Virus record (IMG/VR): IMGVR_UViG_3300037114_000074
Source of the DNA: an uncultured virus (IMG/VR IMGVR_UViG_3300037114_000074)
Taxonomy: Duplodnaviria; Heunggongvirae; Uroviricota; Caudoviricetes
Length of the DNA: 64,000 nt
Reading direction: 5' to 3' (one strand)
Shown: positions 3,018-13,309 of the stretch, one piece after another
Layout: the number at the start of each line of letters is the position of its first letter
How positions within the stretch are numbered: position 1 is the first letter of the stretch
Notes under the pieces: model-generated
Told to the model about the DNA's origin: nothing
The model's input: only the letters and a program-made list of their open reading frames with translations
Databases searched by the model: none
Translations under genes and position numbers: made by a program

Positions 3018-3464
3018 CTACCGCTTGTTGGTCCCGGGCTGCCCTGCAGGCGGGGCGTCGTCAGCCACGCCCGCCCGCCTGTTGGTCACGGCCTGCACTG
3101 CCGCGGTGTCGGTCTGGTCCCGGTTGGCGCGGCGGTTGTCCTCCGCCACGTCGGCCGCGGTCCGCGGGCGCGAGCCGTCCCGCTCCATCTCCCGCGCCGA
3201 CCGGTCCGGGTCTCGCTCGCTGCTCTCGATGCGCACGAACCCGCGCTCGGCGTGCTCCATGAACTGCGGGTGCGTGGCGAGGTACGCGGCGTCCTCGTCC
3301 GAGACCTCCGTCTGCACCCCTTCCGGGGCGACGCCGCCGCGCGGACGGATGCCCGCGCCTCCGCGCACCAGGACCTTGCGGTTGATGGTGTTGACGCCAT
3401 CGCTCTTGTTCCAGTTGGCGTACGTGTTGTCGGCGGCAAGGGTTGAGATGACATACTTGCTCAT
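3018..3464 (-). CDS. Conserved head-region protein
   Basis: AGGAG RBS; YVISTLAAD, VLVRGGAG and HPQFMEH..RGF motifs; sits directly after the capsid gene as in related myoviruses. Confidence 0.7.
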   Translation of the reverse strand: MSKYVISTLAADNTYANWNKSDGVNTINRKVLVRGGAGIRPRGGVAPEGVQTEVSDEDAAYLATHPQFMEHAERGFVRIESSERDPDRSAREMERDGSRPRTAADVAEDNRRANRDQTDTAAVQAVTNRRAGVADDAPPAGQPGTNKR

Positions 3465-3509
3465 TGAAATCTACTCCTGATTGGTTAAGCGCTGCCCGCG
3501 GCCCGCGCC

Positions 3510-4673
3510 TCAGATTCCCGTGTACCGCACGACGGCGTACGGCCGCTTCACCAGCACGCCAGCGGTGGCGTTGGTGAAGTCCTCGATGTAGCCCTTGGCG
3601 CGCTGCTCGACGCCCAGCGCCATGAACTTCACCGGCACGATCTGCGCAATGGTGCGCTTGTCGTCCGTGCCGCCGTCCTCCACCGTGTCGGCGTAGAGGT
3701 AGAACACGTCCGCTCCGCCGTTGGCCGCCGCGAGCTGCGGGGCGGAGACCACCCGGCACTTCGGGTACGTCTTCGCCAGCCACATCCGCACGTCCAGTGT
3801 GCCCAGCTCGTTCATCTTGGACAACTGCTGCGCCTTGGTCATCGGGATGGCGAGCGTGGTGGCCACTTCGTACGGGTCGATCACGTCCTGGCTCTGGATC
3901 TGCAGCTGGTTCATCCCGGTGATGATGTCCTGGGTGATCTCCAGGAACGTCTTCACCGCCCAGGTGCTGCCGCCCGCGCCGGCCGCCACCGTGACGTAGG
4001 AGAGGAGCGCCGGGTCGTTGAGGAAGCCGTAGGTGTTGTTGAGGCCGGAGTTGAAGCCGTAGAACCCGACCAGGTTCCTCCAGATCTCCAGCCGCAGCAC
4101 CGCCGCCGCCCGCTTCTCGGCGTCCGAGTTGATCATCGCCGCAGCGGCGCGCGCCTGCTCGAGGCGCCCGACCAGCACGCCGGCCTCGAAGCGCACGATG
4201 GTGCGCTCGACCCAGTTCACGTTCCAGTCGGCCAGCGGCACGTTGGTGCTGTCCTTGTAGACGTCGATGTTGCCCATCGGCTCCACGATCCCCTGCACGA
4301 TCCACTCGTCCCGCCAGTTGCCGATGGTCTCGATGCCGATCAGCTCGTCGATCTTGCGCGCAGCGGTGAGCACCTTGATGAACCCCGGGAGCCAGTTCTG
4401 CAGGAACTGGATGGGTGCCACGATGCTGCCGGTGCTGACGGCGGCGGGGTTCGCGACGCTGGGGAAGTACTGCGTGGTCCACGCGTCCATCGCGGCGAGC
4501 GCGTCCATCGCCACGCGTGTGGCGTCGCGCAGGTAAGCCGGCTCGAAGCCGATCCCGATCCGCTCCAGCAGCCTCACCGCGGCAAGATCCGGGAGGTCTT
4601 TGGTGGAGAGGGCCAGCGGCTTGACCTGGTTGGGCGCGAGCCGCGAGTGACTGACTGATGCAAGGGCGGACAT
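3510..4673 (-). CDS. Major capsid protein (DUF2184/encapsulin-like HK97 fold)
   Basis: 387 aa; GFYG..TYGFLNDPAL and C-terminal TAGVLVKRPYAVVRYTGI; AGGAG RBS. Confidence 0.9.
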   Translation of the reverse strand: MSALASVSHSRLAPNQVKPLALSTKDLPDLAAVRLLERIGIGFEPAYLRDATRVAMDALAAMDAWTTQYFPSVANPAAVSTGSIVAPIQFLQNWLPGFIKVLTAARKIDELIGIETIGNWRDEWIVQGIVEPMGNIDVYKDSTNVPLADWNVNWVERTIVRFEAGVLVGRLEQARAAAAMINSDAEKRAAAVLRLEIWRNLVGFYGFNSGLNNTYGFLNDPALLSYVTVAAGAGGSTWAVKTFLEITQDIITGMNQLQIQSQDVIDPYEVATTLAIPMTKAQQLSKMNELGTLDVRMWLAKTYPKCRVVSAPQLAAANGGADVFYLYADTVEDGGTDDKRTIAQIVPVKFMALGVEQRAKGYIEDFTNATAGVLVKRPYAVVRYTGI

Positions 4674-8147: not shown

Positions 8148-9839
8148 TCAGGACCCCGCCGGCTTGCCCTTGTCCTTGCCGTTCCCCTTGCCCTTGCTGT
8201 CCTGCTGCCGGGCGACGTCCGCTTTGGCCGCGCGGCGCGCGGGACCGGCAGCCTCGGCCGCAGCGTCCGGGTCGTCCAGGTCTGGCAGGTCCTCGGTCTC
8301 CAGGTCCTTGCCGATGCCGTGGTACCCGGAATCCTTGTCCCCGGCCACGCGCGCGCGCTCGTCGACTGGCGAAAGGGCGCCGGAGGCGATGAGCGAGGCG
8401 CCGGTCTCCGCCTTGTTGAGATTCACCTGGCTCCGCTCCACGTGCGTCAGCGCGTCCAGCTCGTGCCACTTGACGATGATCTCGGCGTCCGCGAGCTCCT
8501 TGAACTTCGGCAGCACCTCCGACTTCATCACCAGCGCGTGGTGCCGCTGCGCGAACGGGGTGAAGTCCCGCTCCTGCATCGACTCCAGCATCTCGTGGTA
8601 ACTCGCCTCGTCGTACTCCCCCGTGGCCGCGAAGCCGCCCGGGGTGGTGCCCAGCAGCTTGGTGATCGGGCAGCCGGCGGTGGCGGCCACCAGCCCGTAC
8701 TGCGTAAACACCAGCCCGTCGAAGTCCGCGAGCGGGGTGTCGAATTGCTTGAAGTCCTCGGTCTCCTTGTCGCCCATCTTGATGCCGAAGTTGTCGCGGT
8801 TCGCGATCCAGTTCTGCACCACCGTCTCCGCCTTTTCTGAGTCCGCCATGACCTTCGCCATGTCCGTCAGCCACACCGTGGTGCGCTTGGACAGCGCCAG
8901 CGCCGGAGCCTCGTTCGCCGTGCGCTCCGCGCAGTACACCCGCTCCATGATCATCTGCGGCAGCGGCACGCCGCCGAACATATACATCGGCTTCAGCACG
9001 TCCACCGGTTCCGCGTACCGGAAGATCACGAGGTGGCTGCGGTGCACGCGCCGGCTGCCGATAAGCCACCAGGTGGGCTCGTAGAAGTTGCGGTTGGTGG
9101 GCACCGCGGCCGACGTGATATCCAGAATCGGCGCGCACCAGTAGGGGTCCACCTGGCTAAAGCCTTTGTAGGAGCCCGCGGTCACGCCGTCGATGTTGAA
9201 GGGCTTCTCGTAGTACGCCGGGTCCTTGCTCTCCACCTCGAACAGCGCGATGCGTATGCCGAAGATGCGGCCCTTGGTGCCGAACTCTCTCAAGCCCTTG
9301 ATCATGCCGTGCCGGCGGTCGGCGCTCTTAATCAGCTTCAGCGCCTCCTCGGGGATGTCCTCACCCGAGACCGTGGTGATTTCGTAGCCGTTGCGGATCG
9401 CATCGTCCACCGGCACGGCGCACGCCTTGTACACGAGCCAGTGCTGCGCGATGAACCCGGCGCTCTGGTAGCCGATAAACCCCTGGCGCATGAACCAGGG
9501 TATGAGCGACAGCTGCTGCCCGGCCTGCAGCACGGCTTGCTTGAAGGCGGGGAGGCCGGAGTCCGCGTCATCCATCGCGGAGGATAGTGTGACCAGCGGG
9601 TCCTTGGCGTCCATCGCGGCGCCGGCGACGGGCGGGCGCCACACCTGGATGCGGTCGAACGCCGCGCGCGCTGCCGCCTGGAACGCCTCGACCTGGCGAC
9701 GCTCAAGCTCCTGCTGCGCGCGCAGCATGCGGCTCGACACCGAGTTGCCCTCGTACTTGTCGGCGCGGCTCCTGGGCTCAGGCGCAGCGGCGGCGGCGGG
9801 GCGCTTGCGGCGCAGCAGGTCAAGGAGACGGTTGAACAC
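8148..9839 (-). CDS. Portal protein (DUF1073 family)
   Basis: FIGYQ..GFIAQHWLVYKAC..PVDDAIR, EPTWW..VHRSHL and PITKLLGTTPGGFAATGE motifs; GAGG RBS. Confidence 0.9.
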   Translation of the reverse strand: MFNRLLDLLRRKRPAAAAAPEPRSRADKYEGNSVSSRMLRAQQELERRQVEAFQAAARAAFDRIQVWRPPVAGAAMDAKDPLVTLSSAMDDADSGLPAFKQAVLQAGQQLSLIPWFMRQGFIGYQSAGFIAQHWLVYKACAVPVDDAIRNGYEITTVSGEDIPEEALKLIKSADRRHGMIKGLREFGTKGRIFGIRIALFEVESKDPAYYEKPFNIDGVTAGSYKGFSQVDPYWCAPILDITSAAVPTNRNFYEPTWWLIGSRRVHRSHLVIFRYAEPVDVLKPMYMFGGVPLPQMIMERVYCAERTANEAPALALSKRTTVWLTDMAKVMADSEKAETVVQNWIANRDNFGIKMGDKETEDFKQFDTPLADFDGLVFTQYGLVAATAGCPITKLLGTTPGGFAATGEYDEASYHEMLESMQERDFTPFAQRHHALVMKSEVLPKFKELADAEIIVKWHELDALTHVERSQVNLNKAETGASLIASGALSPVDERARVAGDKDSGYHGIGKDLETEDLPDLDDPDAAAEAAGPARRAAKADVARQQDSKGKGNGKDKGKPAGS

Positions 9840-11568
9840 GGGGGGAAGTTCCTCGCCTTACGGCTGTGCGCTCCGAGGCGCGTTCCATTTCTTCAGGGAT
9901 AATCGGCCGGCTGATGCAGCGGCAATTATGCGCTATAATAGCACCGGCAATGTACCACCCACTGGCGGTCTCGAGGTTATACACATGGCCCTCAAACTTC
10001 ATACGTACGACCCTGACGAGTCGCGCGAGCTTCGCCGGCAACACGAAGCCGGTGTATCCGTGCTCTCGCTGGCGAGACAACACGGTATTGCCAGAGGTGC
10101 AATAGTCGCCAGGATCAAGTTCGCCGGCGGCTCCGTGCGAGGTTGCAGCGACGCCATGTTCGTGCGCATGAGTCGCGCTACCAAGGCGGAGCGCAAACGC
10201 CTCGCGCGCGCTGCCAATGCTGCGCGCCGCGGAAGCAAGGCCGGAGAAGCCGAGTTGCTTACGAAAGCTCGCGCGAAGTCTCGGATCGTCGGTAGAGGGG
10301 AGCGCGAACTCCTGGCAGCCCTGCAAACGCACCAACTCCCCACCGAAGGTCAGCGGCCGTGCGGCAAATACAACATCGACATCGCCATCGGCGACTGCGT
10401 CGCCGTGGAAGTCTTCGCTAAAAGTCTTCTTGATCACGCGAAGTTTACGGGCGGCATCGAGCGCGCCAAACACCTCAGAGATAGCGGGTACGCGTTGGTC
10501 TACGTTAAATTCACGCCGCGAGCTGGACGACGAGGACGCAAACTCGCTACTGCAGATCCCCTCATCGGGAACTTGCCACACATAGTCGCCTTCCTGGAGC
10601 GACTTTACGGCGACCCAACCTTGCGGCGTAAGAACTGGATGATTCTGTGTCGCGCGTACCGCTTTACCAGAGTCCGTAACCAGCTCGGTCACCTCACCGC
10701 TGTACCAACGCCGGTACGCTACTCTCACACGATCAGCGAACTGGACCTGTGAGTCTCCCGGAAAGCAGTTGATCGGCGTGCCAGGGAACACCCACTCCTG
10801 GTCCACCTCGCTCCACATGCCCTTGGCGAGGTCGTAGCGTTTGCGCTCCCGCCCCCACCGCACGTGCTCGGGCCGCGGCACCTTGCCGGCGTGGGAGTGG
10901 ATCCAGACGGCCTCCGTCACGCCCAGCTCCTGCCGCCGCGTGTTCTCCAGCACCGCCTTGGCTTTGTTGGTCTGATCGCGGCTGATGATCGCCGCCCGGC
11001 GGTACGTCACGCCGTACCGCTGCCGCAGCCCCTTCGACAGCTCGCGCTGCGCCCCGCCCTTCATCACGGCCGTCGCGACCAGCTTCTCGACCCCGCGGTG
11101 GAACTGCCGCGGGATGCTGCGGATCAGCGCCACGTTATCCGCCACCATCGCCTGGTGCGCGGTCACCATGCCGGCGCTGGGGGCGAAGCGCACGGTGAAC
11201 CCGGCGTCGCGGAGCCGGCGCTTGAAAGCGGCGTCTACGTAGCGGCGCGATCGCCGCACGAACAGCTTCGCCATGTCGGCCGCCATGCGGTCGAACCGCT
11301 CCTCCCACCGCACGCCCCACTCGGCGAACGCCCGGCGCAGCGCCACCTCGGGCGCCTCGTCGAACGCGGCCCCGACCGTTGCCAGCCTCGCACCCTCGGG
11401 GGAGGAGGGGACTGTTACCGGTTCGTCAACGGAAGGGGCCGTCGGATCAAACTTCTTCAGTACCTCCAACATCTCCACCGCCATCGCCCGCGCGAGCTGC
11501 TGCAGCCGGCGCGCGTACCAGGCGCGCACCGCTTGCGATGGGTAGACGGGCTTAAGGGTGGCGGGCAC
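9820..11568 (-). CDS. MuF (phage Mu gpF-like) head morphogenesis protein containing an intein
   Basis: RAAIISRDQT, WIHS..KVPRPEH; PGTPIN|CRC is split by a Hint domain. Confidence 0.9.
   Translation of the reverse strand: MPATLKPVYPSQAVRAWYARRLQQLARAMAVEMLEVLKKFDPTAPSVDEPVTVPSSPEGARLATVGAAFDEAPEVALRRAFAEWGVRWEERFDRMAADMAKLFVRRSRRYVDAAFKRRLRDAGFTVRFAPSAGMVTAHQAMVADNVALIRSIPRQFHRGVEKLVATAVMKGGAQRELSKGLRQRYGVTYRRAAIISRDQTNKAKAVLENTRRQELGVTEAVWIHSHAGKVPRPEHVRWGRERKRYDLAKGMWSEVDQEWVFPGTPINCFPGDSQVQFADRVRVAYRRWYSGEVTELVTDSGKAVRATQNHPVLTPQGWVAVKSLQEGDYVWQVPDEGICSSEFASSSSSSRREFNVDQRVPAISEVFGALDAARKLRVIKKTFSEDFHGDAVADGDVDVVFAARPLTFGGELVRLQGCQEFALPSTDDPRLRASFRKQLGFSGLASAARSIGSAREAFALRLGSATHAHEHGVAATSHGAAGELDPGDYCTSGNTVLSRQREHGYTGFVLPAKLARLVRVVRMKFEGHVYNLETASGWYIAGAIIAHNCRCISRPIIPEEMERASERTAVRRGTSPRVQPSP
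9934..9977 (+). promoter_or_regulatory. Putative -10 box and RBS of the antisense nuclease gene
   Basis: TATAAT at 9934-9939 and GAGGT at 9973-9977, 7 nt before ATG 9985; weak -35 CTGATG at 17-nt spacing. Confidence 0.55.
9985..10752 (+). CDS. HTH + Vsr/DUF559-like endonuclease nested antisense inside the intein
   Basis: 255 aa; HTH SVLSLARQHGIARGAIVARIK; nuclease pattern GERELLAAL..QRPCGKYNIDIAI..VAVEVF..ERAKHLRDSGYALVYV; own RBS. Confidence 0.75.
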   Translation: MALKLHTYDPDESRELRRQHEAGVSVLSLARQHGIARGAIVARIKFAGGSVRGCSDAMFVRMSRATKAERKRLARAANAARRGSKAGEAELLTKARAKSRIVGRGERELLAALQTHQLPTEGQRPCGKYNIDIAIGDCVAVEVFAKSLLDHAKFTGGIERAKHLRDSGYALVYVKFTPRAGRRGRKLATADPLIGNLPHIVAFLERLYGDPTLRRKNWMILCRAYRFTRVRNQLGHLTAVPTPVRYSHTISELDL

Positions 11569-11758
11569 GGGACTTCGGATTCAGGCTCTTGGTGCTCGGG
11601 CACAGCGGCGGCAGCCCAGCCTTCGCCCTCCGCCAGCTGCACAGCGCCCGGGCCGTGGGAGAAGCGTGGCCCCTGCAGTACCGGCGAGCGCGGCCGGCGT
11701 GGCCGTCAGCGGGCCGCGGCTCGACCTCGCACTCGCACTCCGGCTCCAGGCATTTCAT
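11552..11758 (-). CDS. Small Cys-rich hypothetical protein
   Basis: MKCLEPECECEV...YCRGH; ATG overlaps the terminase stop. Confidence 0.45.
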   Translation of the reverse strand: MKCLEPECECEVEPRPADGHAGRARRYCRGHASPTARALCSWRRAKAGLPPLCPSTKSLNPKSRARHP

Positions 11759-12957
11759 CCGAACGAACTCCTGCGGCGCTTGATCACCGGCTCCAGACCG
11801 TAGCGCACCGAGTCCCAGATGTGGTTGTGCCGGTCTTCCGCCTCCGCCATCACGTTGCCTGTAAGGCGGTCCACCTTGAACGAGTAGAGTCGTGCCTCCT
11901 GCTGCGCATGGGTGCAGCGCGGATGAATCACGATGCGCTCGTAACTGCGGATGTGCGCGATGCCGTCCTCGACGCACCCCTTCCACTTCTCGCACGCCCG
12001 CATGCGCGGGTACCCGTGCTGCTGCATGTAGCTGATGGTCTCGGGGCGCGCACTGTCGGCGCGGATGATCTCCTTATCGCTACCGGGGACGAGCTCGAAC
12101 AGCGCCGGAGTCTTGTCAATGTCGCGGCCGATCGCATAGGCCTCGTACTCGATGTAGAGCACGTTCTCGTATACCCACATCTTGACCAAGGCCGTGGGAT
12201 CCTGCGCGAAGCCCCAGTCCCCGCCAAAGTACGGACCGGACCAGTCAGGCTTCGGCTCGAACGCCTCGACACGCCACTTGCCGTGGAACACGACCGCCTC
12301 GCCATGGACCTGGCACTCGCCTTCCCACACATGCGCATAGGCATCCGGGTCTACGCGCAGCAGGTAGTCGCGTTCCGCGGCCAGCTCCGTGGTAAGATGC
12401 GGGTTGTCCCGCCAGCTAATCTTGCGCACCACCGCGTCAGGTGGAGGGTTCCTTACGAACCGCTGGTAGGTCGGGTCCATCTCACGGCGCGGGTTAAACG
12501 TTACCCAGATCTCGGAGCCCGGCTTCCTTATCGTCGGGATGAGGTTCTCCCAACTGTCGTTCGTAAAGGTGTCGCCCTCCTCCACCCAGGCGATATCAAC
12601 GCCCTCGAGACTCTTGATCCCTCGGGGGTTGATGTGAAGACCTCGGAAGATAAACTGCGACCCGCAACGCGTCTCGATCTCCGTCTTCCCTACGTCGTAC
12701 TCGTCGAGTAGCCCGAGGTTGTCGATCTGATCGACCAGCAGTCGGTGCACCGAGTCCGCGATGCTGGCCTGGTACTCGCGAGCGCATAGTATGCGCAGAG
12801 GGTGAATCGCAGCGAGGCCTGTCAGGACGCGAGAGACCGACCAGGACTTAGCGCCTCCGCGACCGCCCCAGGGGACTTTGTATCGGCCAGGACCTAAGAG
12901 GAAGTCGAAGGCCGGGGGGACAAGCTCGAAGTCGCTAGTCCTTAGCTGCGCGTTCAC
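11755..12957 (-). CDS. terL: Terminase large subunit (PBSX family)
   Basis: GGRGGAKS Walker A, CAREYQASIADSV, IAWVEE Walker B, TFNP, GGDWGFAQDPTA, DRHNHIWDSVRY; probable GTG start at 12957. Confidence 0.95.
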   Translation of the reverse strand: MNAQLRTSDFELVPPAFDFLLGPGRYKVPWGGRGGAKSWSVSRVLTGLAAIHPLRILCAREYQASIADSVHRLLVDQIDNLGLLDEYDVGKTEIETRCGSQFIFRGLHINPRGIKSLEGVDIAWVEEGDTFTNDSWENLIPTIRKPGSEIWVTFNPRREMDPTYQRFVRNPPPDAVVRKISWRDNPHLTTELAAERDYLLRVDPDAYAHVWEGECQVHGEAVVFHGKWRVEAFEPKPDWSGPYFGGDWGFAQDPTALVKMWVYENVLYIEYEAYAIGRDIDKTPALFELVPGSDKEIIRADSARPETISYMQQHGYPRMRACEKWKGCVEDGIAHIRSYERIVIHPRCTHAQQEARLYSFKVDRLTGNVMAEAEDRHNHIWDSVRYGLEPVIKRRRSSFG

Positions 12958-13309
12958 CGGCCACCGCCCGCGCCAGCATATTGGCGAGCGCCCCCTTGAC
13001 GCCCCCGAGCCCCGGCGTGTCGTCGCGCGTGGCGATCGGCCCGCCGTCAGGCCCGGAGACTTCACTACGTGAGAGCACGGGAATCGAGCGCTCGAGCAGG
13101 AGCTCCGCACCCTTCAGTTGATCGCGGGTGAGAACGATCTTGCGCTTGGTCTGCGGCAGCTTCTCTCCCAGCACAAAGGCCTCGAGCCGGTTGATCAGCG
13201 ACGTAGCGCGGATCTTCTCGCACGTCGACTCAGCCTGGCGCTTGTTGAGGCGCACGCCAGTCGGTCGGCCGGTGCGAGGTTTGCGTCCGCGGGGTGATTT
13301 GCGAGACAT
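12935..13309 (-). CDS. Probable terminase small subunit
   Basis: Immediately upstream of terL; EVSGPDGGPI C-terminal motif typical of TerS. Confidence 0.7.
   Translation of the reverse strand: MSRKSPRGRKPRTGRPTGVRLNKRQAESTCEKIRATSLINRLEAFVLGEKLPQTKRKIVLTRDQLKGAELLLERSIPVLSRSEVSGPDGGPIATRDDTPGLGGVKGALANMLARAVAGERAAKD

Follow-up and report, generated by a model that had tools for sequence, protein, structure and literature searches.

A phage MuF intein with a putative Vsr-like homing endonuclease gene on the opposite strand

The uncultured virus IMGVR_UViG_3300037114_000074 (IMG/VR; Duplodnaviria; Heunggongvirae; Uroviricota; Caudoviricetes) carries an intein in a MuF-like head morphogenesis gene. 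The stretch of its DNA analyzed here, referred to below as the window, is 64,000 nucleotides (nt) long. The intein occupies positions 9925..10767 of the minus strand, and a second open reading frame (ORF) of 255 amino acids (aa) lies entirely within it on the plus strand, at 9985..10752. The locus raises the question of whether this antisense ORF is a gene and, if so, whether its product is the nuclease that makes the intein mobile. An earlier note on this DNA had proposed both. The present analysis makes it highly probable that the locus is a mobile intein in a MuF gene whose mobility nuclease is encoded as a separate gene on the opposite strand. Elements of this kind are already known, and the window is a further member with a different host range.

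The intein and its antisense reading frame

The intein is of the class-1 type and comprises 281 aa. Cys1 is encoded at 10765-10767, the terminal His-Asn at 9925-9930 and Cys+1 at 9922-9924. Cys1, in the motif CFPGDS, comes directly after the sequence ...PGTPIN, and the other junction reads ...IIAHN|CRC. Block B is TQNHPVLT (residues 40-47), block F is GHVYNLET and block G is IIAHN, followed by CRC. In 38 aligned inteins C1 is nearly invariant, and H43, T47 and N281 are invariant. Cys1, the terminal HN and Cys+1 are where the earlier note had placed them, and the splicing blocks are intact. The splicing (HINT) domain consists of an N-terminal half (residues 1-70, blocks A and B; 10558..10767, minus strand), modelled by AlphaFold2 (AF2) with a predicted local distance difference test score (pLDDT) of 91-98, and a C-terminal half (residues 241-281, blocks F and G; 9925..10047, minus strand) with a pLDDT of 87-98. 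The profile TIGR01445 (intein_Nterm) scored 25.7 bits, above its cut-off of 24.5, and Pfam Intein_splicing scored 29.4 bits, below its cut-off of 35.8. Protein splicing activity would be expected, since the motifs are intact and the phage requires a functional head protein.

The AF2 model of the intein frame aligned best with 1at0 (Z 13.4, root mean square deviation (rmsd) 1.6, 108 residues aligned), followed by 2imz (Z 12.8), the NpuDnaB intein 4o1r (Z 12.7) and gp41-1, 6riz (Z 11.8), the alignments of these four covering 100-113 residues. Its structural matches were HINT domains only, at Z 10-13.4 over about 100-115 aligned residues. Between the two halves the pLDDT was 79-90 for residues 91-140 and 36-53 for residues 141-240. 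No LAGLIDADG or HNH family was found for the intein at E <= 1 in Pfam or NCBIfam, in agreement with the lack of such motifs reported earlier. An in-frame endonuclease domain was rejected on the basis of these family searches, the HINT-only model matches and the strand-switch data described below. A split intein was also rejected, the precursor being one continuous 582-aa ORF and the minus frame being continuous in all 59 loci of the comparative set.

The antisense gene, annotated here as a 255-aa helix-turn-helix (HTH) plus Vsr-like nuclease and putative homing endonuclease, runs on the plus strand from ATG at 9985 to a TGA stop codon at 10750-10752, opposite intein Ser6. It begins within block F, covers blocks A-B and is contained in a larger plus-strand open frame at 9490..10752. 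The two frames are in exact codon register, plus residue j lying opposite intein residue 262-j, and both strands are open over 768 of the 843 nt of the intein. The ORF listing and the open-frame coordinates therefore agree with the 255-aa ORF, its exact register and the coding overlap of about 768 of 843 nt given in the earlier note. G+C-rich DNA often contains long antisense ORFs in codon register. From the local third-position composition, about 2.8 antisense stops would be expected in the centre of the intein and 0.9 in its N-terminal part. The open plus frame of this G+C-rich window, taken alone, is only weakly beyond chance; that the ORF is more than chance follows from the comparative evidence from relatives.

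A search with the plus-strand protein returned six metagenomic proteins with 37-52% identity. A pattern scan derived from the alignment of these six relatives yielded 56 viral loci and 3 confirmed genome loci (out of 23 pattern matches), giving the set of 59. One of them (L001) is the window's own contig and is 100% identical. All 59 loci are inteins at the same MuF site, and their G+C content ranges from 0.39 to 0.68. In each of them a minus-strand open frame of 302-1325 aa spans the plus-strand match in register 0, and in 58 of the 59 the plus frame continues for 222 aa or more without a stop. Clean intein boundaries (Cys or Ala at position 1, a terminal Asn and Cys at +1) are present in 47 of 52 unique rows. 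The plus-strand stop codon lies opposite intein residues 2-6 in 39 of these 52 rows, opposite residues 9-28 in 10 and beyond the intein start in 2; the plus frame is broken in 1. The broken frame is that of L053 (3914-4003), where 30 aa are open at the match start. This locus, alone in this respect among the 59, also has Val instead of His in block F and may be a decaying copy.

Coding on both strands

Codon alignments of 46 unique inteins were built with either the intein-frame or the plus-frame protein as guide, and the picture was the same with both. Over intein residues 1-60 and 261-281 the aa identity is 0.31-0.54 in the minus frame and 0.19-0.30 in the plus frame, and the most variable base is minus position 3. 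The N-terminal HINT half, which is encoded on the minus strand and shares its DNA with the C-terminal tail of the plus ORF, shows 0.35-0.54 in the minus frame against 0.19-0.30 in the plus frame, again with minus position 3 most variable, and the minus frame is likewise the more conserved in the C-terminal half. Over residues 81-240 the aa identity is 0.14-0.47 in the minus frame and 0.25-0.57 in the plus frame. The most variable base at residues 121-240 is plus position 3, which at residues 81-120 is lowest or tied. As judged from these alignments, the coding periodicity changes strand in the middle of the intein.

Substitutions were also compared in 7 independent close pairs with 95.5-99.9% nucleotide identity. 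In the centre, 32 were synonymous in the plus frame only and 5 in the intein frame only, with 15 non-synonymous in both frames and 2 synonymous in both. The corresponding counts for the first 60 codons were 3 (plus only), 12 (intein only), 2 (non-synonymous in both) and 1 (synonymous in both), and those for the last 21 codons were 0, 8, 0 and 0. Across the middle region, for which the earlier note had suggested comparing the two strands in homologues, substitutions, conservation and periodicity all favour the plus frame.

Stop avoidance was assessed in 41 representatives with less than 80% nucleotide identity, by comparing the counts of TTA, CTA and TCA, each of which would create a stop in the opposite frame, with the expectation from local third-position composition. 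In the centre (plus frame) no such codon was observed where 180.6 were expected. The N-terminal splicing region (residues 7-60, minus frame) had 11 such codons against 71.7 expected, and the extein control (minus frame) had 179 against 242.3. Blocks F-G upstream of the plus start, with 26 against 38.7, show no special stop avoidance relative to the extein control. On these counts both frames are kept open by selection. The alignments support an intein centre that evolves as plus-strand coding sequence, with the intein frame there merely held open.

One patch, at 10399..10410, appears to be constrained in both frames. It encodes V139-A140-V141-E142 (GTC GCC GTG GAA) on the plus strand and F120-H121-G122-D123 on the minus strand. 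Synonymous sites are frozen at A140 (GCC in 35 of 37), V141 (GTG in 35 of 36) and E142 (GAA in 35 of 37), and the codons of I131, D132 and Y129 are frozen as well. Because the synonymous codons of the plus frame are frozen, the intein frame always reads F-H-G-D and V-D-x-V. At about 25 other conserved plus-strand residues the synonymous codons vary freely, which fits an unconstrained intein-frame peptide there. The stretch that the earlier note quoted as antisense shadow, EDFHGDAVADGDVDVV, contains this patch and is alone in having intein-frame residues (FHGD, VDV) conserved as well, through the frozen synonymous sites.

The candidate expression signals of the antisense gene lie inside the splicing blocks. 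The start codon ATG (9985..9987, plus strand) lies opposite CAT, the codon of His261 in block F. Block F was located in 42 inteins, 33 of which have His at this position, encoded by CAT in 31 and by CAC in 2, corresponding to ATG or GTG on the plus strand. In a thinned set CAT was used for the block F His in 23 of 25 cases; for comparison, two other conserved His positions had CAT in 28 of 61 (Fisher p 6.7e-05). The block F codons AAC CTC, for Asn-Leu, supply in antisense a Shine-Dalgarno-like GAGG (9973..9976, plus strand) that precedes the ATG by 8 nt. The Leu of the motif N-L-(E/Q)-T is encoded by CTC in 25 of 34 inteins and by CTT in 4 of 34, and with the codon CTC a GGAG or GAGG precedes the ATG by 8-9 nt. 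In inteins with Glu after this Leu, Asn is mostly encoded by AAC, which gives GAGG; with Gln (CAA) in that place, GGAG results regardless. In the thinned set CTC occurs in 21 of 30 cases against an expected frequency of 0.32 (p 2.4e-05).

A candidate -10 element, TATAAT (9934..9939, plus strand), is located 46 nt before the ATG, opposite the block G codons ATT ATA of Ile277-Ile278, a rare codon pair for Ile-Ile. Among the 41 representatives, 10 have the perfect hexamer and 18 agree with it at 5 or 6 of 6 positions. Its first T depends on a synonymous third base, which is A in 27 of 41 (background 0.19, p 7e-11), and a TGn extension is present in 11 of 41. The conserved ATG and its own ribosome-binding site suggest that the nuclease is made independently of the MuF-intein polypeptide, as the earlier note had supposed. 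Two terminator-like hairpins were detected at 9865-9883 on the plus strand, against 1.2 expected.

The predicted nuclease, its mobility and alternative readings

An HTH DNA-binding domain was assigned to plus residues 5-49 (9997..10131, plus strand) from structural matches to KorB, ParB, DeoR and resolvase domains (Z 5-6.3). A Vsr-like nuclease domain was assigned to residues 100-254 (10282..10746, plus strand), with a core at residues 100-213 followed by a beta-hairpin tail. The AF2 model of the plus-strand protein, made with the family alignment, had a pLDDT of 88.9 and a predicted template modelling score of 0.75. An exhaustive structural search (VIA) ranked Vsr first (1cw0_A, Z 10.6, rmsd 2.5, 114 residues, model range 100-254). 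The catalytic domain of I-Bth0305I (3r3p_B) was matched at Z 8.8 with an rmsd of 2.9 and 94 of 98 residues aligned, and the DUF559-like 3hrl_A at Z 8.3. The family profile detected 3hrl at E 4.9e-05 over the full chain and 3r3p at E 1.2. Among 41 family members searched against Pfam, MTES_1575 was found in 24 at E <= 0.01 (best 1.9e-10), DUF559 in 4, HTH_7 in 12 and HTH_23 in 11. The 25 families listed of the 27 found are HTH types, HTH_7, HTH_23 and HTH_38 among them, with no NUMOD family.

The 41-member alignment has 11 invariant columns, among them C126, G127, Y129, N130, I131, D132, A140, E142 and R160; E106 is nearly invariant. In the window protein, the 11 invariant and the 9 nearly invariant residues of the family are all retained. 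Taken together, the AF2 fold, the first rank of 1cw0 and the family profile support a product composed of an HTH domain, a basic helical linker and a Vsr-fold nuclease with putative activity, as had been read from its sequence patterns. Structure prediction on both frames, which the earlier note had called for, gave a confident Vsr-like fold for the plus frame and a HINT domain only for the intein frame. The match to Vsr extends into the beta-hairpin at the C-terminus (residues 217-253), which is encoded over the N-terminal splicing domain of the intein; a nuclease tail in the overlap would explain the open plus frame there. In agreement with this, codon freezing in the overlap is moderate, with T40 encoded by ACA in 18 of 33 and N42 by AAT in 26 of 33.

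Evidence for mobility comes from the distribution of the intein among MuF alleles. Of 50 MuF loci related to the N-extein of the window, 45 are intein-free at the exact site, with ...IN directly followed by CRC; the closest extein relatives (L064 and L065, 63% identity) are among them. Four prophage-like loci (L074, L098, L103 and L111) each carry an intein at 3209-4183 with the same antisense ORF. These four inteins are 96.7-99.3% identical, with N-exteins that are 72-96% identical. In pairs with L098, extein identity is 0.54-0.74 at first and climbs to 0.89-0.96 over the 200 nt next to the junction. Intein-free loci, L104 and L081, are the nearest in extein sequence to L103 (96.8%) and L098 (90%). 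The features of these alignments are those classically seen after recent homing with co-conversion of the flanks. The group was missed in the first pattern scan because its nuclease motif reads FDVYNID. A megablast search of the L074-type intein against complete E. coli genomes gave no match, and two DNA-type runs of one study contained short, fully identical pieces only, with no joints and no intein-less form. The window intein is itself compositionally foreign to its host gene, with a G+C content of 0.598 against 0.707 in the N-extein and a third-position G+C content (GC3) of 0.64 against 0.92.

A mobile intein that has entered a phage MuF gene at its conserved ...N|CRC... site would account for these observations. 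The minus strand would yield a MuF-N / intein / MuF-C polypeptide, in which the two HINT halves (1-70 and 241-281) would fold together. Splicing would then remove the middle of about 170 residues, presumably for the most part an unconstrained antisense read-through free of stops. The plus strand would yield the 255-aa protein from the ATG at 9985, using the Shine-Dalgarno sequence in the antisense of block F and perhaps the -10 element in that of block G. Where an intein-less MuF allele coexists, as in co-infection or when a phage meets a prophage, the nuclease would cut at or near IN|CRC. Repair from the intein-bearing copy would transfer the intein, the nuclease gene and adjacent extein DNA.

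Several points weigh against this account. The plus-strand protein of the window falls below every Pfam family cut-off (MTES_1575, E 0.11, 13 bits against 38.2), and Foldseek against the PDB gave no match at E <= 0.001, all E-values being above 0.07; its top rows include 3hrl, 3r3p and 1cw0 despite these weak values. The His that aligns with the conserved DUF559-type His occurs, within a GGxWH motif, in some members of the family but is not conserved in the subgroup of the window, which reads AVEVFAKSLLDH at this place. The window protein may therefore use a different chemistry, or it may be a weak copy. In the L074 group, which likewise has no GGxWH His, recent spread is nonetheless seen. The frozen codons at A140-V141-E142 point to an additional constraint, on the intein frame or on the nucleic acid, and the patch may reflect either a need of the intein peptide or a nucleic-acid constraint on the codons of the nuclease core. 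A promoter scan found no full sigma-70 site at 9400-11000, and the TATAAT at 9934-9939 is without a convincing -35 element. Finally, the window copy has no close relatives beyond its own contig, and the evidence for recent homing therefore comes from other lineages.

The missing His bears on a first alternative, namely that the plus-strand gene is real and its product is a regulator, a nickase or an anti-competitor nuclease rather than a homing enzyme, the intein serving as a safe harbour. Such a role would also suit an HTH domain that resembles those of regulators and of ParB/KorB-type binders. It is improbable, given that the nuclease gene was found only inside this intein family (59 of 59 loci), that intein and gene move together into intein-free alleles with their flanks co-converted, and that the closest characterized relative by fold, I-Bth0305I, is described in PMC3239194 as a homing endonuclease. 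A second alternative concerns the window copy alone, which could be a decaying remnant of a genuine family in an intein now inherited vertically. Its nearest relatives beyond L001 are about 50% identical, hence the absence of a local homing signature, and the protein taken alone is weak in Pfam. This we regard as very unlikely: no break interrupts the ORF between its conserved start and stop codons, the invariant and nearly invariant residues are in place, the GAGG site and a perfect TATAAT are kept, and a GC3 still unlike that of the host gene argues for recent arrival. The proposal that the plus ORF is a chance shadow and the intein middle an in-frame domain of unknown type, for which the mere 3.7 or so antisense stops expected in the G+C-rich window alone and the pLDDT of 79-90 at intein-frame residues 91-140 could be cited, can be practically dismissed, as the plus frame stays open in loci with a G+C content of 0.39-0.46, its protein has a confident known fold with a conserved start codon and Shine-Dalgarno sequence, and periodicity, aa conservation and close-pair substitutions in the centre already contradict it.

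With a mobile intein and a separate antisense nuclease gene as the preferred reading, it is tentatively suggested that the two are interlocked beyond what has been described before, through the signals in blocks F/G, the shared N-terminus and the F-H-G-D patch. If this were true, neither partner could be lost or inverted without harming the other, and the interlock would explain the persistence of the family in more than 1,500 protein clusters and in phages of many hosts.

Known systems, distribution and gene neighbourhood

An antisense endonuclease layout is not unprecedented. Gosselin, Arsenault and Gogarten (bioRxiv 10.1101/2025.01.02.630785) described LAGLIDADG or VSR-like endonucleases antisense to full inteins in a survey of PhagesDB actinobacteriophages, with minor capsid (MuF-type) proteins among the host genes. 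They reported a predicted fold matching 1CW0 at Z 10.6, an HHpred match to 3R3P, an unstructured in-frame region and signs of ongoing transfer. Their actinophage inteins and that of the window have in common a contiguous intein, an antisense Vsr-like ORF and an in-frame middle without a fold. Unlike the PhagesDB set, the lineage of the window occurs in Salmonella Jerseyviruses, in Klebsiella, Vibrio and other phages and in metagenomic viral contigs. In the literature searched, the antisense VSR-like layout was described only in this 2025 preprint. The words start codon, ribosom- and promoter are absent from its available text, as are the embedded start, Shine-Dalgarno and -10 signals, the change of coding periodicity between strands, the extension of the ORF over the splicing blocks, the frozen codons of the FHGD patch and the family size; its supplements may differ.

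Antisense LAGLIDADG inteins were described by Gorbalenya (1998) and Gogarten et al. (2002), as cited in the same preprint. In these cases the endonuclease is likewise encoded opposite a contiguous intein, but it is of the LAGLIDADG type and not Vsr-like, and the host genes are Synechocystis dnaX and a gene for a Chloroflexus SpoVR-like protein, unlike the MuF gene here. Dassa et al. (2009; PMC2677866) reported free-standing Vsr-like endonuclease genes between the halves of split inteins. These fractured genes share with the window a phage intein and a separately translated Vsr-related endonuclease with its own expression signals. There the intein is split into two genes with the nuclease between them, whereas in the window one continuous ORF runs across the nuclease gene in antisense. 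Taylor et al. (2011; PMC3239194) characterized I-Bth0305I (PDB 3r3p) and named the EDxHD family. This enzyme and the window protein both have a Vsr-fold catalytic domain after a DNA-binding region and are both encoded by a phage-carried gene. I-Bth0305I differs in residing in a group I intron and in having NUMOD-like motifs, whereas the window gene is antisense in an intein and has an HTH of the resolvase/homeodomain type. The general-base His of the EDxHD composite motif, unlike in I-Bth0305I, is not conserved in the subgroup of the window. The Jerseyvirus gene is named an 'intein-containing capsid morphogenesis protein' in PMC8425127, whose passages on the intein, in the text available, do not mention an antisense gene.

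The locus would represent a clean natural case of antisense dual coding, in which about 770 bases appear to encode two proteins on opposite strands, both under selection. Routine annotation calls one of two such genes, with the result that these inteins look decayed or 'mini' and their nuclease genes go unseen. The arrangement is also relevant to how inteins acquire ties to free-standing endonuclease genes and to how a mobile element can express its nuclease apart from a late structural gene. As the family is present in cultured Salmonella, Klebsiella and Vibrio phages, it is accessible to bench tests.

A tblastn search matched 83 GenBank phage records, 61 from phages of Salmonella and 8 from phages of Klebsiella, the remainder being from phages of Escherichia, Vibrio, Edwardsiella, Haemophilus and Aggregatibacter. 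No actinophage was among the 83; this was a single-sequence search, which does not by itself prove a separate origin. The annotation under the match was, among the 30 matches listed, mostly 'head morphogenesis protein' or hypothetical protein, and the record of Salmonella phage PK2 annotates the antisense ORF as hypothetical. A profile search recovered 1,592 clusters (50% identity) at E <= 1e-30, a number that rose to 3,675 at E <= 1e-10. The antisense proteins of L010, L012-L026, L029, L032-L037, L054 and L062 are longer, at 288-306 aa, and carry one more HTH at the N-terminus. In the profile search, relatives with lengths up to 446 aa showed 3-5 matched stretches, which suggests repeated HTH modules.

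The MuF-like head morphogenesis precursor gene extends over 9820..11568 on the minus strand (582 aa, GTG start, stop included). Its N-extein (10768..11568, minus strand; 267 aa) ends in ...PGTPIN, and its C-extein (9820..9924, minus strand; 34 aa plus the stop codon) begins with Cys+1 (CRCIS...). By sequence arithmetic, removal of the intein would leave a MuF protein of 267 + 34 = 301 aa, the length predicted earlier. The 582-aa protein remained below the cut-offs of Pfam Phage_Mu_F (27.4 bits, cut-off 29.6) and TIGR01641 (30.8 bits, cut-off 39.65). The gene is flanked by genes for the large terminase (11755-13110; Terminase_3, 2.2e-35) and the portal protein (8148-9839; Phage_portal_3, 1.3e-73), the order on the minus strand being large terminase, MuF, portal. 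The portal ORF as listed has a GTG start at 9839 and overlaps the end of the MuF gene (stop codon 9820-9822) by 20 nt. Homologues of the MuF gene in GenBank phages are annotated as head morphogenesis protein among the matches listed. The intein-bearing ORFs of L014/L015, L035, L040, L045, L048/L049, L052 and L056 are 1001-1325 aa long, and from this length the MuF domain would be part of a much larger protein in these loci. In the GenBank record of the Jerseyvirus ZCSE7 the intein-bearing gene is labelled NAD+--asparagine ADP-ribosyltransferase.

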